Part shown: positions 25,293-30,522 of the stretch, one piece after another | Numbering within the stretch: position 1 is the first letter of the stretch | Layout: each line of letters begins with the position of its first letter | Origin: Desulfurococcales archaeon | GTDB taxonomy: Archaea > Thermoproteota > Thermoprotei_A > Sulfolobales > Desulfurococcaceae | NCBI GenBank assembly: GCA_027022365.1 | Contig: JALVYU010000007.1 | Location: forward strand, 1-64,000 | DNA: 64,000 nt | Reading direction: 5' to 3' | Notes under the pieces: generated by a model | Databases searched by the model: none | What the model was told of the DNA's origin: nothing | Seen by the model: only the letters and a program-made list of their open reading frames with translations | Position numbers and translations under genes: made by a program

Positions 25293-25597
25293 TACTGTGC
25301 ACCCACGACCCGGCGGACAAGCTCATCGACGGCTTGATCTATTTTCGCTCTTCCTTTTCTCCTGATTTCCTCTGCCTGGGCATATGCTTCATTAAGGATT
25401 TTTTCTGCTTCTCTCTTTGCTTCTTCTACTAATTTTTCTGCTTCTTTCTTAAACTCCTCCGTGGGTATGGGGGCTGATAGTATTTGTTCAGCCCTCGTTT
25501 TCGCCTTCTTTATTATTTCATCGGCTTTCTTTCTAGCCTCTTCAATGATTCTATCGGCTTCCCTCTCGATCTCCTCTATATTCAAGCTGTCACTCAA
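25292..25597 (-). CDS. atpH: A/V-type ATP synthase peripheral stalk subunit H/G
   Basis: E/K/A-rich coiled coil of 101 aa directly before atpI. Confidence 0.82.
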   Translation of the reverse strand: MSDSLNIEEIEREADRIIEEARKKADEIIKKAKTRAEQILSAPIPTEEFKKEAEKLVEEAKREAEKILNEAYAQAEEIRRKGRAKIDQAVDELVRRVVGAQ

Positions 25598-25624
25598 TAA
25601 TCTACACCATCACGCGTGGTCGTC

Positions 25625-26047
25625 TCATGTAGGGGTAAAAATAATCGTTGTTGTGGTTCTTAGGCGTGTTCGTAATTCATATAATTGAGGCCTGTAAAAT
25701 ATAAGCTCTCCTTTCCCGCTATGGTCCAGGCCCAGTATTTTTGCCACCGCAAGAGCAGCTACTGGGTCACGTATTCTGTAGACGCCCTCGCCTAGAGATG
25801 GTGAAGACTCTATGATTATGGGTATCTTGATAAGGCAGACCTTATCGCCGAGAATATTTCTTAGTAGTTGTAGCTCTCTCTTGTCGATTAGATGTGTTGT
25901 ACCATCCCTTAGGACTATGTATGGAGGATTCATATCTATGAGATCACATAGACTTATCCGCCTGTATGGCATGTGCTTATTAATGATCCTGAGCTCGTCC
26001 TTAAGGGCCTTTAGCACCATGTCATCGAGATCGGGATCGAGGCTCAT
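25625..26047 (-). CDS. DUF61 (UPF0216) family protein
   Basis: ELRIINKHMP.RRISL.DL...P.IVLRDGTTHLIDKREL pattern. Confidence 0.8.
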   Translation of the reverse strand: MSLDPDLDDMVLKALKDELRIINKHMPYRRISLCDLIDMNPPYIVLRDGTTHLIDKRELQLLRNILGDKVCLIKIPIIIESSPSLGEGVYRIRDPVAALAVAKILGLDHSGKGELIFYRPQLYELRTRLRTTTTIIFTPT

Positions 26048-26667
26048 TTCCTACCACGCTTTTTCTCAAGCATACTCTTAACTCGTTTTAGCCTGGCTTT
26101 TTCTTCTCGCTCCCTCTCCTCAAACTTCATGGAAAGATAGCGTATGGTTTTCTCGAGCCTCGGTATAACTATATACTCTAACGCGTTGACTTTTCTTTTG
26201 GTTCTACCTATTTCTTTGCCCAAACTGATTATTGCCTGCTCGGTCCTGCCTAGATCTATGATCATAGTGATTATCTTGATGGCTTCTCTCGAGAACTCGT
26301 CAAGACCGGGGGGAAGAGACACGAGGATCTCGGGCTCCTTCACAACAGCACTGACCGAACGGACACCCATAATGTTTTCGTGTCCCACATAAACCCTCAT
26401 TCCATTCTTTAAGGATGAACGTAGAAAGGAGTATGATTTATCACCATAAGTGCCCGTCAACAGTATTGCCTTATTATAGACTGATGATATATACTTGTTC
26501 AACTCCAACCTGAAATTATATGCCTCACGAACACGTGTAAGGAACTCATTAACAAGTATGGTTAATCTTTCCCTGAGAATCCTATGAACCTTTTTAGCCA
26601 GGTCCCTGCGTCTACGTAGCTTGATCAGCTCTATCTTTGTCGCCCTAACCCTCATCAACGAAGACAT
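26044..26667 (-). CDS. atpD: A/V-type ATP synthase subunit D
   Basis: ATKIELIKL, NIMGV, EIGRTKRKVNALEYIVIP, EEREREEKARLK. Confidence 0.95.
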   Translation of the reverse strand: MSSLMRVRATKIELIKLRRRRDLAKKVHRILRERLTILVNEFLTRVREAYNFRLELNKYISSVYNKAILLTGTYGDKSYSFLRSSLKNGMRVYVGHENIMGVRSVSAVVKEPEILVSLPPGLDEFSREAIKIITMIIDLGRTEQAIISLGKEIGRTKRKVNALEYIVIPRLEKTIRYLSMKFEEREREEKARLKRVKSMLEKKRGRK

Positions 26668-26690
26668 AGCGGCATCAACGCCCCTAAGAT

Positions 26691-26698
26691 ATTTAAAA
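26691..26698 (-). promoter_or_regulatory. TATA box of ATP synthase operon (leaderless atpD)
   Basis: TTTTAAAT on the minus strand, about 25 nt upstream of the atpD ATG. Confidence 0.6.
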
Positions 26699-26809
26699 CA
26701 ATATATTCGAACATATGCAATAACTTCAGAATTAGATGTAGATAGCTAGAGAGTAAAAAGAGTTGCTTACTCTAATAATCATCGTAGTGATATCTTTAAC
26801 AGTATTTTT

Positions 26810-26826
26810 GGAAAAAGAAAAATTGT
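26810..26826 (-). terminator. Oligo-T terminator after small peptide ORF
   Basis: Minus strand ACAATTTTTCTTTTTCC about 12 nt after the TAA at 26838. Confidence 0.5.
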
Positions 26827-26837
26827 TTTTAACGAGA

Positions 26838-26966
26838 TTAAAATACTGGATCGTCCGGGACAGGATCTCCTCCGGGCCTAGGTCCTAATAGGTATTCAGG
26901 TCTAATTGTGGTCATGGTTTTATTCCTCTTCTCCTTTAGTGTTTTGATGAGGGTTTTGATGCTCAT
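26838..26966 (-). CDS. Unannotated 42-aa peptide MSIKTLIKTLKEKRNKTMTTIRPEYLLGPRPGGDPVPDDPVF (alternative start ATG 26915, 25 aa)
   Basis: Manually translated ORF below the 60-aa track cutoff; upstream TATA (27043-27050), downstream T-tract, GC-rich 3' half inside AT-rich intergenic DNA; AAGGAG/GAGG before the second ATG. Confidence 0.65.
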   Translation of the reverse strand: MSIKTLIKTLKEKRNKTMTTIRPEYLLGPRPGGDPVPDDPVF

Positions 26967-26982
26967 TTTGGGTCGAGAATAG

Positions 26983-27048
26983 ATATGCAAACGATCTTAC
27001 CTGTATGTTCGCTCAATGAAAAAATCCGCCAATATGCAAAAGATTTAA
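26983..27048. repeat. Two imperfect direct repeats ATATGCAAA(C/A)GAT(C/T)T(T/A)A, putative operators
   Basis: 26983-26999 and 27032-27048, 14/17 identical; the second overlaps the TATA box; core ATATGCAA recurs at 26713-26720. Confidence 0.5.
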
Positions 27049-27062
27049 AAACAGGATTTGGT

Positions 27063-27413
27063 CTAGGCCTTTAAAACATTTTTAAGGTAGAATTCATAGG
27101 TATTGTCTCCCGCCCTACGATAATAGACTGCATAGTAAGCAGGGTGGGAAGAGCCTGGGGAATAGAGCTCAACAACAATTGTGTCCTTACATCCTGGAGT
27201 TTCCCCCACTATTGTGCACTCATTAGCATTTTCACGAATAGCTGCTTCGAAGCCGTACGGGGTCAGCACGTTGTTTATCATAATTGCTAGCCGTTCCATA
27301 AGATATTCGTCGATTATTTCAATATATTCGCGTGTAGTCCAATCACTTGGTCCTTCAAACGAGACAGATATCTTCAGTATCTTTTTAAGCGTGTTAATAT
27401 CCTCTGAAGACAT
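27063..27413 (-). CDS. Hypothetical protein
   Basis: 116-aa ORF translationally coupled (TGATG) to the NUDIX gene. Confidence 0.7.
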   Translation of the reverse strand: MSSEDINTLKKILKISVSFEGPSDWTTREYIEIIDEYLMERLAIMINNVLTPYGFEAAIRENANECTIVGETPGCKDTIVVELYSPGSSHPAYYAVYYRRAGDNTYEFYLKNVLKA

Positions 27414-27988
27414 CAGTCTTCACCTAGTGAGTCTTTCCAGAAGAAGTTCGCATAGTACAGGATCAGCATTGCAGTTTTCAGATCCACGATTTGATTATTC
27501 TTTATCATGTCTAGGGCATCTGTCAAATTCACAACTGTCGGGGTTATAACTTCATAAGGTTCTGGACGCATACCAACATATTCGAGCTTCCTCGCGATGA
27601 AGAAGTGCATTTTTTCAGTACTATAGCCTGGTACGGGGTAGTAGTAGCCTAGAGGTATGAGTTCACCGGGCTCGTAACCGATCTCCTCTATTAATTCCCT
27701 CCTTGCAGCTTCTTTGGGTAGCTCATTTTCCTCAACAACACCAGCAGGGACTTCATATATATAATCATTAATCGCAGCCCTATATTGTCTTATTAATATA
27801 ATTCTATCAGACGTTAGTACCGGGAGTATAATGACTGATTCCGGAAAGACCACAATATCTCGTTCAACATGCTTGTTATCGATTTCCAATAATCTTCTTA
27901 CGACATTGAACCTAAGACCTCTGAATAACTCTGTGTCTTTTATTACTTTTATGTACGGAACACTGTTTTTTCCCACTATTCCATTCAC
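27413..27988 (-). CDS. NUDIX hydrolase (ADP-ribose pyrophosphatase-like)
   Basis: RQYR, EVPAGVVEENELPKEAARRELIEEIG Nudix box, PGYSTE. Confidence 0.92.
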   Translation of the reverse strand: MNGIVGKNSVPYIKVIKDTELFRGLRFNVVRRLLEIDNKHVERDIVVFPESVIILPVLTSDRIILIRQYRAAINDYIYEVPAGVVEENELPKEAARRELIEEIGYEPGELIPLGYYYPVPGYSTEKMHFFIARKLEYVGMRPEPYEVITPTVVNLTDALDMIKNNQIVDLKTAMLILYYANFFWKDSLGED

Positions 27989-28059
27989 CTCGTTGTCGGA
28001 TTCATTTTTAAAGTAGGAAATATTGGAAAATAAATAGTATTCAATGATATATCAATAAA

Positions 28060-29334
28060 ATGCATGGAAAACACCTTTATCAAATCCGTGAAATGGAAAC
28101 GGTGGAGATATTGTATAAAAATGTAGAGGATTTGGAAAGAAGATATATTAAGGCTTTCAAGGAAAGTGTGAGAAAACTTTCTATGATATGCGGCACGGAT
28201 CTGGGTGAATTTGTTGATAAACTTACAAAGGTTAGTCGTATAGGTTTTTACTCATATATAGCCAAGGAACTTGGAATAAAGGAGAGACTAGTTTATTCGT
28301 ATGTACGCAAACTTCAAAAGAATGGTTTCAAGTTCACAGTAGATATAAACTTGAAAAGAATCGGATTATACAAATATTTCATTCATATACCCCAATTAAT
28401 TGATTTCAATGTTATTAGGAATAACGAAACAATCGCGTGGCTAAATTATTATTCGATAACATTAAACCCTATAGGTACTTTATTAACATATTTCATTCCA
28501 TATAACTTAAAAGACGAGCTTTTAAGGAAAATAAATAGCTTCATAATGAAATTAGCTGAAAAAGTGAAAGATAAAGGAATCTTCATTCATTTTTATATAA
28601 GTTATAGACATCAGCCTATTTTTCATAAATCTCCTTTTAGCCAACATAGGTTTATTCACGGCTTTCTTTTTGATGAAATTATCGAATTATTTGAAAATAG
28701 TCGGTTAGATGATATTGTGTTTAAATACATTATAGACGAGTTAAACACTAGGTTTTCATCGCCTTATGATGCTGTGGATCTGATCATATTAAAAGAATAT
28801 GATATTGATGCATTTACGACTGTGCAGAGTATAGCTAAAAAATATCCTATATCTCAGAGGATTATATTGAAGCATCTAAATAACCATATTAACAACAAAA
28901 AGATTATACGGGGTCTCTTCTTAAAGTCAAGCATTTATTCATCTTTTCTTTTCAAGTTTTTAGGGGTCTTTTTATTTTTGAATGACTTGAGTAATGCTAT
29001 TAAAGTATTTAATTTCTTCAGAAACTTTGATTATTCGTTGAGTATTAACCTAGGTATTCCTGACGAGATCATGCGTGAACAAAACTATGAATTCATTATA
29101 TCCGTTCAAGTGGCTGTTCCTCAGTTAAGGGTTTATGAGTTCCTGAAGTTTCTAGATTATCTTTACAGACATGACTATATTGTGAGTTATAAACTGTATG
29201 AGTTTCTTCCGGATACATTTGTTAGGTTTACTATTCCTTATCTTAATTTTGATCAGGAGCGTAAGGATTGGACGTTGGATGTTAAGAACGTTCAAGAGTT
29301 GTTGATGAGGAGATTTATGATTCCCCGTATTTAG
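28060..29334 (+). CDS. Large tandem Lrp/AsnC-like (double wHTH) transcriptional regulator
   Basis: HTH1 YIAKELGIKERLVYSYVRKLQKNG...INLKRIGL; HTH2 DAVDLIILKEYDIDAFTTVQSIAKKYPIS..IILKHL..HI; C-terminal RFTIPY..FD...W. Confidence 0.75.
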   Translation: MHGKHLYQIREMETVEILYKNVEDLERRYIKAFKESVRKLSMICGTDLGEFVDKLTKVSRIGFYSYIAKELGIKERLVYSYVRKLQKNGFKFTVDINLKRIGLYKYFIHIPQLIDFNVIRNNETIAWLNYYSITLNPIGTLLTYFIPYNLKDELLRKINSFIMKLAEKVKDKGIFIHFYISYRHQPIFHKSPFSQHRFIHGFLFDEIIELFENSRLDDIVFKYIIDELNTRFSSPYDAVDLIILKEYDIDAFTTVQSIAKKYPISQRIILKHLNNHINNKKIIRGLFLKSSIYSSFLFKFLGVFLFLNDLSNAIKVFNFFRNFDYSLSINLGIPDEIMREQNYEFIISVQVAVPQLRVYEFLKFLDYLYRHDYIVSYKLYEFLPDTFVRFTIPYLNFDQERKDWTLDVKNVQELLMRRFMIPRI

Positions 29335-29406: not shown

Positions 29407-30522
29407 GTGATGGAAGTTGAAGGTCGTTTTTCCAGGATGTTTTCTCCCGGAATTTCTATCGTCCTTAGGGGGGTTATCTATACGGGTGTTCTATTGGTTG
29501 CACTGTTGCTTTGTGTAGTTGGTAATGTATATGTTGGGATTAAGCCGTTTCTTCTCCAGGACTTTATATCATCGCTTGGATATACTGGGGGATTATCAGT
29601 ACTTATTACCGCCTTAATACTCTTTCTGGCTGTAATAATACCTTTCCTAGTGTTAATAAGCAGGAATGGACTTATGATGGGATATATACGGACAACTATA
29701 ATCTCCTCAACTATCTTGGTATTAATGGTACTAGGTATTACGTGGTATCGTGTTTACCGTGAAGGAGTCCCGACTACACAGGATACTATAGCCACTATAA
29801 TGCTGTTGTCGATGCTTATAGCTCTAGTCATACTGGATCGAAAATACCCATACATAGCAGTTAAAGCAGAGACTAACAGGCTCCCCAAGGATTATCTAGC
29901 TATTGTTAAGGTCTATGGCGATATTAACGGTTTTGAGATACATCCAGTACCTGTGAACTCGTTCAGCATACGAGGCCCCTTCAAGACGCTTTATGCCCAC
30001 TATTATGAGTTACATTATATGGCTGGTAAATCTGCATCAATAACCCTGAAGTACAGGGGCATAGAGATTGGGAGGATTAATATTTCTGGGGCACAATTAC
30101 CGCTCAGACGAATACGGTTCAAGGCTTTTGTAAACGACGATGATATAGGCGTATATGAATATACCGTCGAAGTCCTTAAGTCTCTTGACATAGCATCTGA
30201 GCCTGTCGTCAAGGCCGTTGCCGCGAAGATCGGAATAGACGTAGATCAGATCCGCGAGGTAATGTTTTTTGACTCCAATGGATCGCCGCTAGATCCCAAG
30301 ATTCTGATCAAGGATCTGAACGGAGATGAAGTCCAGGTAAAGATATACTTTACAGAGCCTTATATGGAGATCCTGAAGTACTACCGCAAAGAATCGATTA
30401 TAAACCTATGGGATAAGTTGATGAAACGCCTGGAGATCTATGGCGAACTCGTTGATGATTTAGCAGAAAACCTCGATAAAGCTCTTACGAAACTGGTAAG
30501 CCTGTCTGTTAACTGGTGGTAG
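29407..30522 (+). CDS. Hypothetical membrane protein (4 N-terminal TM helices, soluble C-terminal part with possible ubiquitin-like fold)
   Basis: Hydrophobic segments within residues ~15-145; see findings. Confidence 0.7.
   Translation: MMEVEGRFSRMFSPGISIVLRGVIYTGVLLVALLLCVVGNVYVGIKPFLLQDFISSLGYTGGLSVLITALILFLAVIIPFLVLISRNGLMMGYIRTTIISSTILVLMVLGITWYRVYREGVPTTQDTIATIMLLSMLIALVILDRKYPYIAVKAETNRLPKDYLAIVKVYGDINGFEIHPVPVNSFSIRGPFKTLYAHYYELHYMAGKSASITLKYRGIEIGRINISGAQLPLRRIRFKAFVNDDDIGVYEYTVEVLKSLDIASEPVVKAVAAKIGIDVDQIREVMFFDSNGSPLDPKILIKDLNGDEVQVKIYFTEPYMEILKYYRKESIINLWDKLMKRLEIYGELVDDLAENLDKALTKLVSLSVNWW

Follow-up and report, generated by a model that had tools for sequence, protein, structure and literature searches.

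In a 64,000-nucleotide (nt) stretch of genomic DNA from a Desulfurococcales archaeon (NCBI GenBank assembly GCA_027022365.1, contig JALVYU010000007.1, positions 1 to 64,000; hereafter the window), comparison with related sequences identifies a hidden open reading frame (ORF) of 42 codons as a real gene. On balance, the peptide that it encodes is probably a ligand of a nearby-encoded DNA-binding protein of the fused tandem Lrp/AsnC type (hereafter the regulator), a ligand that would be exported in most lineages and cytosolic in the window's genus. The small-protein family and the regulator constitute a conserved two-gene module, in which the tail of the small protein (G-G-D-P-x-x-D-D-P-x-x) is predicted by co-folding to dock on the surface formed by the two RAM-like domains and the C-terminal FTIPY extension of the regulator, and the docked tail may serve as a ligand or cofactor that changes the action of the regulator on DNA. 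In most lineages the tail lies behind a basic helix and a signal-anchor-like segment, and so would belong to an exported or membrane-inserted precursor. In the window's genus the hydrophobic segment and the Shine-Dalgarno sequence of the first start codon appear to have been lost, and a soluble peptide of 25-42 amino acids (aa) would meet the regulator inside the cell. The features on which the argument rests are the following.

26838..26966, minus strand: small-protein gene, 42 codons plus stop, counted from the first ATG (M1), by direct reading of the sequence
26838..26915, minus strand: possible shorter product of 25 aa starting at M18, the most constrained part of the gene, with GAGG upstream
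26841..26885, minus strand: codons 28-42 (GPRPGGDPVPDDPVF), family-defining C-terminal motif and predicted regulator-binding tail, from conservation and co-folding
26925..26928, minus strand: GAGG, Shine-Dalgarno-like, upstream of M18, putative ribosome-binding site
26967..27062, minus strand: upstream region with two TTTGCATA boxes (27033-27040 and 26984-26991), nearly invariant within the genus
27043..27051, minus strand: TATA-like box TTTTTAAAT, kept in three genomes of the genus, putative promoter element
26812..26822, minus strand: T-tract TTTTTCTTTTT after the stop, candidate archaeal terminator
28060..29334, plus strand: fused tandem Lrp/AsnC-fold protein of 424 aa, predicted peptide receptor, from an AlphaFold2 (AF2) model, Foldseek and co-folding

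The hidden reading frame is a coding gene

The original prediction, made from the letters of the window alone, had placed a minus-strand ORF at 26966-26838. The frame exists, with its ATG at 26966-26964 and its TAA at 26840-26838, and its direct translation of 42 aa, including the IKTL-IKTL repeat, agrees letter for letter with the predicted one. When 41 related genomes were searched at the DNA level, the stretch matched two others of the genus, G004 (at 86% identity across 411 nt) and G003 (83%, only over a part ending with the ORF), and in both the frame is kept at the same place, between the gene of a 116-aa protein (p116) and atpD. The ratio of non-synonymous to synonymous substitution rates (dN/dS, Nei-Gojobori) was 0.20, 0.10 and 0.12 for the three genome pairs, and the dN of the ORF (0.07-0.10) was similar to that of the neighbouring genes. 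The coding constraint that had been suspected is thus found in three syntenic genomes of the genus, and the dN/dS comparison among relatives that had been put forward as a check (0.10-0.20) indicates purifying selection.

The substitutions are unevenly distributed along the gene. Between G000 and G003 there are 16 synonymous and 9 non-synonymous differences in the ORF, with 14 synonymous against 4 non-synonymous in codons 17-42 and 2 against 5 in codons 1-16, and dS is 0.24 in the first 16 codons compared to more than 2 in the remainder of the gene. Since the 96 nt upstream are also almost invariant, this uneven constraint points to an additional constraint at the nucleotide level on the 5′ part of the gene. 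The G003 copy carries an in-frame deletion of 3 nt. On metagenome contigs from four runs, six variant positions in the ORF are synonymous and the non-synonymous ones are limited to codons 15, 16 and 40, the population variants within the C-terminal motif being mostly synonymous. The ORF was not found in G001, G002 and G005 of the genus, which is uninformative given that the flanking p116/atpD region was likewise not found there; the G005 contig ends 106 nt past the start of the regulator gene. A second form of the locus, on contigs of three metagenome runs, has the 74 nt of 26777-26850 (the last codons of the ORF and the T-tract) replaced by 91 other letters.

The start codon of the window's form is either M1 or M18, and the product may begin at M18, as judged from the sequences around the two ATGs. 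No Shine-Dalgarno sequence precedes M1, and GGTG, which stands 3-18 nt 5′ of the start in 28 of the 32 family members outside the genus (compared to 3.7% of background windows), occurs in none of the three members inside it. The ATG of M18 lies at 26915-26913, and in each of the three genomes of the genus it is preceded, at a distance of nine nt, by GAGG. The TATA box that had been proposed at 27043-27050 was found as TTTTTAAAT at 27051-27043, and a similar TTTTTAAAC box stands 5′ of the small gene in other genera. The T-tract is likewise present beyond the stop, as TTTTTCTTTTT at 26822-26812, and the 3′ half of the gene is GC-rich as had been noted (GC 0.45-0.52 at 26820-26909 against 0.22-0.28 at 26790-26849 and 27030-27089).

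The region 26920-27062 (minus strand), comprising the 96 nt upstream and the first 16 codons, is nearly invariant in the three genomes, in which synonymous sites elsewhere are saturated. The two TTTGCATA boxes 5′ of the small gene are 49 nt apart, and the corresponding upstream region in other genera instead contains GATC(A) boxes in two or three copies, together with a TATA box and a CATTGAG..AACAT element. We considered TTTGCATA as an operator and discarded it: the window holds 5 copies where 2.64 are expected, 5 copies are reached in 10 of 100 shuffles, and the box is absent from the regulator's own promoter. An Rfam scan of 25500-28500 at E-values (E) up to 10 gave two chance-level matches, both elsewhere, and none in 26600-27300.

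A family of small proteins with a modular tail

A single-sequence search of the 325 genomes of the order gave weak matches in other genera of the window's taxonomic family, which were small ORFs in the same synteny, and iterated hidden Markov model (HMM) searches on the fetched loci led to 37 distinct aligned members. With a profile of the family, which the window ORF matches at E 1.9e-21, the ORF was found at E<=0.1 in 38 of the 325 genomes of the order and in 22 of the 62 genomes of the window's family. When 1.84 billion representative proteins were searched, 38 matches were obtained at E<=1e-3, all of them 41-71 aa long except one repetitive false match. In a sample of 401 genomes of the phylum, the matches were confined to the order save one doubtful case; the doubtful matches in this sample were G032 (E 2.8e-5, in a 98-aa frame) and G501 (with an internal stop). 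No Pfam or NCBIfam model and no name for the small-protein family were found in the sources searched. A 394-aa protein from a small-protein cluster (P0055), which we take to be a tryptophan-synthase beta chain, has no resemblance to the family and was treated as a clustering artefact.

The homologues are spread over many genera at 20-45% protein identity with the frame kept. A typical member has 45-56 residues: an N-terminal amphipathic helix of basic character leads into a strongly hydrophobic stretch, and the C-terminus carries a G-D-P/Asp-rich motif in which G33 is invariant and D34 and D39 occur in at least 90% of the 37 members. The window's copy fits this pattern at both ends: its SIKTLIKTLK aligns with the consensus x-L-x-K-L-I-K-x-L-K of the basic helix, and its last ~12 residues carry the family motif G-D-(P)-x-x-D/E-D. 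It differs in the middle, where the hydrophobic signal-anchor-like segment of about 15-22 residues is missing only in the window's genus. The best 15-residue hydropathy (Kyte-Doolittle mean) is -0.45 in the window and -0.25 to -0.45 in the genus, compared to 1.84-3.25 in all 34 members outside it. The flanks of the segment are net positive on the N-terminal side in 34 of 34 relatives and net negative on the C-terminal side in 33 of 34. According to the positive-inside rule the positive flank stays on the inner side, and the topology predicted from these sequences for the relatives is N-in, C-out. At L153:4141-4380 (plus strand), in genus g36 of the window's family, the middle part is weakly hydrophobic by eye, and this may be a second lineage that is losing the membrane segment.

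Some relatives contain the motif more than once: there are two copies in P0040, three in each of P0045 and P0054, where they follow a canonical signal peptide of short length, and two in L154, with A-M-A just before the first. By the sequence comparisons, the C-terminal motif is therefore a conserved modular unit. The leader and core architecture proposed in the original prediction stands in the sense that the tail is modular, conserved and repeated in relatives, and fails for the N-terminus, which is no free-standing leader and precedes a membrane or signal segment in the relatives.

The partner is a tandem protein of Lrp/AsnC fold

The regulator gene is present as a single copy in the window's genome. 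The AF2 model of its product (predicted local distance difference test, pLDDT, 86.8; predicted template modelling score, pTM, 0.85) consists of two winged helix-turn-helix (HTH) and beta-alpha repeats, so that the HTH plus RAM unit occurs twice (H47-87 with E92-183, and H238-278 with E283-382). The best Foldseek match was NirDL 4ch7 (E 6.3e-9, template modelling scores 0.49/0.63, identity 11%, root mean square deviation 6.6 A), followed by many Lrp/AsnC regulators, the structures matched including 2dbb, 2cyy, 2e1c, 2pmh, 2cg4 and 1i1g. At the sequence level the protein remains below the curated cut-offs of HTH_36 (23.6 vs 25 bits), HTH_24 (13.2 vs 21.9) and NCBIfam LrpA (23.3 vs 250), and a phmmer search of the PDB reached 1i1g at E 0.64. 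Given the two repeats in the model and the structural matches, the 'tandem Lrp' identity that had been assigned from sequence is right at the level of the fold. Chains of this kind are 360-430 aa long and carry a C-terminal xTxPY extension. The regulator homologues L073 and L086 contain in-frame stops (one TGA in G223; three TAG and one TAA in G239) and may be pseudogenes or assembly errors.

The two genes are kept together

In the window the regulator and the small gene are divergent with 1094 nt between them, in line with the ~1.1 kb that had been noted, and a NUDIX hydrolase gene and p116 lie in between. The gene order in the window's family is regulator, then in the divergent direction NUDIX, p116, small gene and atp genes, the first atp gene being D, K or H depending on the genus. 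The presence or absence of the small gene and of the regulator agree across the genera of this family: both are absent from g13 (0/4), g10 (0/5) and g8 (regulator in 0/17, with a single small-ORF match in 1/17 at E 0.09 that was taken as chance), and both are present in g12, g18, g19, g35 and others.

Outside the family, the pair is found in other surroundings. At the eight loci compared in other families, the regulator is the only one of the reference genes found near the small gene; a regulator homologue is directly beside it in five of them and likewise in two more (L067 and L069), the last locus being at a contig start. In the first five of these the two genes either diverge across 84-150 nt or run in the same direction, the small gene being ahead. 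A Bathyarchaeia metagenome-assembled genome also has the pair, with a small ORF (hydrophobic N-terminus, two GDPIDDDP-type motifs) convergent to the regulator homologue. The link between the small gene and the tandem-Lrp protein that had been proposed from their distance is hence kept across families whose other neighbours differ. In another family of the phylum, a regulator homologue is immediately preceded by an 80-aa ORF (L168:2670-2912, minus strand) that has a lipoprotein-like signal and bears an LGDPVDD motif at its C-terminus.

The pairing was also evaluated in the reverse direction, with 30 loci fetched by the regulator profile alone from the 162 of 325 genomes that had a match. The family ORF was detected by HMM in 23 of the 30 loci and a divergent small ORF of the same layout was seen by eye in two more, while the other five have the regulator at a contig end. 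A scan for small ORFs beside regulator homologues, which the original prediction had named as a check, thus yields a small ORF in all 25 loci with the flank present, including each of the 14 that were previously unseen. Two complete genomes of one contig each, G023 and G132, contain the pair. A regulator can thus have an unannotated gene of 42 codons as its conserved partner.

Predicted docking of the tail on the regulator

The regulator and the peptide of the window were co-folded as one cognate pair, each with an alignment made for the purpose. The ipSAE score was 0.90 in three runs, compared to 0.00, 0.00 and 0.12 for the controls; the partner pLDDT was 62 or higher, and 86% or more of the contacts recurred between the runs. 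This mark was attained for 58 of 80 complexes of solved structure, compared to 2 of 110 mismatched pairs. On the peptide side the predicted interface is made of residues 28-42 only, and on the regulator side of residues 120-132, 289-300, 382-396 and 408-412, which belong to both RAM-like domains and to the C-terminal FTIPY strand. The tightest contacts are predicted between the family-conserved G32-G33-D34 of the peptide and T391/P393 of the regulator. Conservation of the interface residues was 0.459 against an average of 0.397, and 229 of 10000 random sets were as high. The proposal that the peptide is the ligand of the regulator is thereby supported at the level of a model, in which the named tail docks on the regulator, whereas a secreted form of that ligand is unlikely for the window's copy.

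Neighbouring genes

The other genes at the locus are listed below.

27413..27988, minus strand: NUDIX hydrolase gene (Pfam PF00293, E 8.7e-14), between the pair only in the window's taxonomic family
27063..27413, minus strand: p116, a 116-aa protein without known family, between the pair only in the window's taxonomic family
26044..26667, minus strand: gene of A-type ATPase subunit D (Pfam ATP-synt_D, E 2.1e-39), first of the atp cluster downstream of the small gene

No NUDIX gene was found near the pair in the loci of other families. Throughout the window's family p116 is conserved, always between NUDIX and the small gene, and its confident AF2 model has a pLDDT of 93.4; it matched nothing in Pfam or NCBIfam, gave no usable Atlas hit and had no fold counterpart in the PDB at E<=0.001. 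A DUF61 gene at 25625-26047 (minus strand) lies inside the atp cluster, between atpD and the gene of a G/H-like subunit, and is kept in several genera. Downstream of the regulator, a 371-aa protein encoded at 29407-30522 (plus strand) is hydrophobic in its N-terminal third and matches nothing in Pfam or NCBIfam. The neighbours scanned with Pfam were NUDIX, p116, ATP-synt_D, DUF61 and the V-ATPase G/H-like protein, and among them no transporter, protease or modifying enzyme was recognised, as had been stated for the surroundings of the peptide gene.

Ligand, secreted signal or surface protein

Given that the tail is under purifying selection in a genus without the hydrophobic segment, it should have an intracellular role, and this selection, together with the gene pairing and the predicted contact, favours a gene-encoded ligand, an interpretation to which we give somewhat more credence than not. 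For most lineages the tail could be released and taken up again, or could bind before insertion, or might not bind at all, the regulator then only controlling the small gene. Much of what the original prediction had read into the sequence holds, namely a real gene, a modular tail, a link with the regulator and, in the model, docking. The secreted signal, cleavage after P-GG, the free-standing leader and the modified peptide find no support here. With a best hydropathy of -0.45 the window's peptide lacks a hydrophobic export segment, so that a secreted quorum signal is unlikely for this copy. Among the neighbours compared in the eight loci of other families only the regulator is kept, and the lack of any conserved modifying enzyme beside the pair speaks against a ribosomally synthesized and post-translationally modified peptide.

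Several observations weigh against a ligand role. In the relatives the tail is predicted to face away from the cytoplasmic regulator, and release with re-uptake, or binding before insertion, would then be required. The docking is predicted from one co-fold with alignments of our own making, for which the calibration of the score is only approximate. The xTxPY extension was tried as a mark of peptide binding and rejected; it also occurs in paralogues with no detectable small ORF, so it is no specific sign of such binding. The GATC boxes that stand 5′ of the small gene in other genera were not found in the regulator-NUDIX intergenic regions, which gives no shared operator. Among 20 loci of lower-scoring paralogues there were 4 HMM matches, 2 look-alikes and 14 with nothing, and 20 loci outside the order gave one look-alike and one doubtful case, with 18-19 lacking a partner ORF. 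The tandem-Lrp superfamily as a whole is common: at E<=1e-12 it was detected in 66 of the 401 genomes sampled from the phylum, some of which have as many as 4-5 copies, and beside most copies no small partner could be recognised. From the loci compared, the pairing is specific to one branch of this larger superfamily.

In regards to secretion, a full quorum-sensing loop is possible, although we find it doubtful. The precursor would be exported, its tail cut off, taken up again by an ATP-binding cassette (ABC) oligopeptide transporter and bound by the cytoplasmic tandem-Lrp receptor, the window's copy being a cell-internal derivative. This would agree with the positive N-flank, hydrophobic segment and acidic tail of 33 of the 34 relatives, with the short canonical signal peptide followed by two or three motif copies in P0054, P0045 and L154, and with the cytoplasmic location of the predicted binding partner. 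The window's genome also has at least four genes of family-5 solute-binding proteins; however, these proteins are generic, and the search matches in 11 of 14 control genomes as well. Moreover, conservation of the N-terminal helix extends across families, more than a simple signal n-region would usually show, the window's genus keeps its tail under selection without a hydrophobic segment, and the pair has no dedicated transporter or protease linked to it, either among the window's neighbours or in the eight loci of other families. Tentatively, the family as a whole could be an archaeal peptide-signalling module, in which a Sec-exported pro-peptide with one to three signal copies releases an acidic Pro/Asp-rich peptide that is re-imported and read by a tandem Lrp/AsnC receptor. 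If true, this would be a quorum-sensing circuit independent of the bacterial RRNPP systems, with RAM domains that read gene-encoded peptides, and the window's genus would be a natural 'private' derivative without export. In a bolder variant, which is possible, the regulator would sense the un-inserted precursor as a read-out of membrane energisation: proteins of 45-55 aa insert post-translationally and an acidic tail needs the membrane potential, hence the regulator could sense the precursor that is not inserted. This variant would fit the place of the small gene at the head of the atp cluster in the window's family.

An exported or membrane-bound effector with a surface function of its own, such as a structural or bacteriocin-like one or the binding of ions by its Asp-rich tail, whose transcription the regulator would control with no contact between the two proteins, is unlikely. 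Divergent pairs of a regulator and its target gene are common, the predicted topology places the tail outside, and a conserved promoter or leader with repeated boxes lies 5′ of the small gene. However, the co-fold (0.90 vs 0.12) joins the residues that are most conserved in the two partners, the pairing holds firmly in lineages whose other neighbours differ, and a surface role does not explain purifying selection on the tail in a genus without the membrane segment. We consider it very improbable that the small protein assists the A-type ATPase as accessory subunit or assembly factor. The small gene is directly upstream of atp genes in the window's family in three arrangements (AtpD, AtpK or AtpH first), and in the window the whole atp cluster follows it. 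However, no match to AtpD, AtpH, AtpI, AtpK or AtpE was found within the 4-16 kilobases fetched at the eight loci of other families, the Bathyarchaeia pair (L154) is not beside atp genes, and the window's form has no membrane segment; the linkage is confined to one family, which makes such a role unlikely, and it was rejected on the synteny outside that family. The least probable reading of all is that there is no protein gene and that a cis-regulatory element or small RNA ahead of the atp cluster contains an incidental open frame. The 96 nt upstream and the first 16 codons are indeed conserved beyond coding need and M1 lacks a Shine-Dalgarno sequence, but the 14 synonymous against 4 non-synonymous changes in codons 17-42, the frame kept in protein homologues of many genera at 20-45% identity, the in-frame length of the G003 deletion (3 nt) and the Rfam result for 26600-27300 (no match up to E 10) all speak for a protein.

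Comparison with known systems and significance

A gene-encoded ligand of the regulator would resemble in its logic the RRNPP-type pairs of Bacillota and their phages, such as Rap/Phr, NprR/NprX, PlcR/PapR and AimR/AimP. In these systems, as outlined in PMC10075063, adjacent genes encode a pro-peptide of 40-70 aa with an active short C-terminal part and a cytoplasmic DNA-binding receptor. Here too a small ORF is adjacent to the receptor gene, its conserved C-terminal tail is predicted to bind, and the N-terminus is signal-like in most relatives, as judged by hydropathy and charge. Unlike in RRNPP pairs, the predicted receptor has a tandem Lrp/AsnC fold and not one of tetratricopeptide repeats (the AF2 model matches Lrp/AsnC-fold proteins only), the hosts are archaea, there is no homology, and the window's copy has no export segment.

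Processing of several peptides from one precursor is known from the fungal alpha-factor type and the cyanobactin PatE type. Some relatives of the small protein are similar in that two or three tandem motifs of 11-13 residues follow one signal peptide, whereas the pair has neither a processing protease nor a modifying enzyme linked to it and the window's copy has a single motif. The closest structural match of the regulator, the siroheme decarboxylases NirDL and AhbA-AhbB, shares a fused or paired Lrp/AsnC-like fold with it; however, the regulator has no Pfam or NCBIfam match to that family, its conserved partner is a small peptide gene and not haem-pathway genes, and its neighbours in the window are NUDIX, p116 and atp genes.

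In Lrp/AsnC regulators the RAM domain is the effector-binding part, according to PMC2995911. The 424-aa partner has the winged HTH and the RAM domain (beta-alpha-beta-beta-alpha-beta) of proteins such as PH1519/FL11, PH0061, ST1022 and LrpA, but with two HTH-RAM units fused in one chain with an xTxPY extension and with scores far below the family cut-offs, and its proposed effector is a gene-encoded peptide and not a free amino acid. A term look-up in a 2010 review on archaeal Lrp proteins returned no 'fused' or 'tandem' forms and no peptide effector. Within the scope of full-text searches and of term look-ups in an archaeal Lrp review and a paper on RRNPP evolution (PMC2995911 and PMC12700828), neither an archaeal gene-encoded peptide-receptor pair nor a peptide effector of an Lrp/AsnC-type protein is described. 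The pair may therefore be the first gene-encoded peptide signal with its receptor seen in archaea. If the predicted binding holds, the ligand range of a regulator family that is among the largest in archaea would widen from amino acids to dedicated peptides, and the pair would be a candidate for peptide-based cell-cell signalling in hyperthermophilic Thermoproteota, the exported and cytosolic forms of the small protein providing a natural contrast for the evolution of such circuits.

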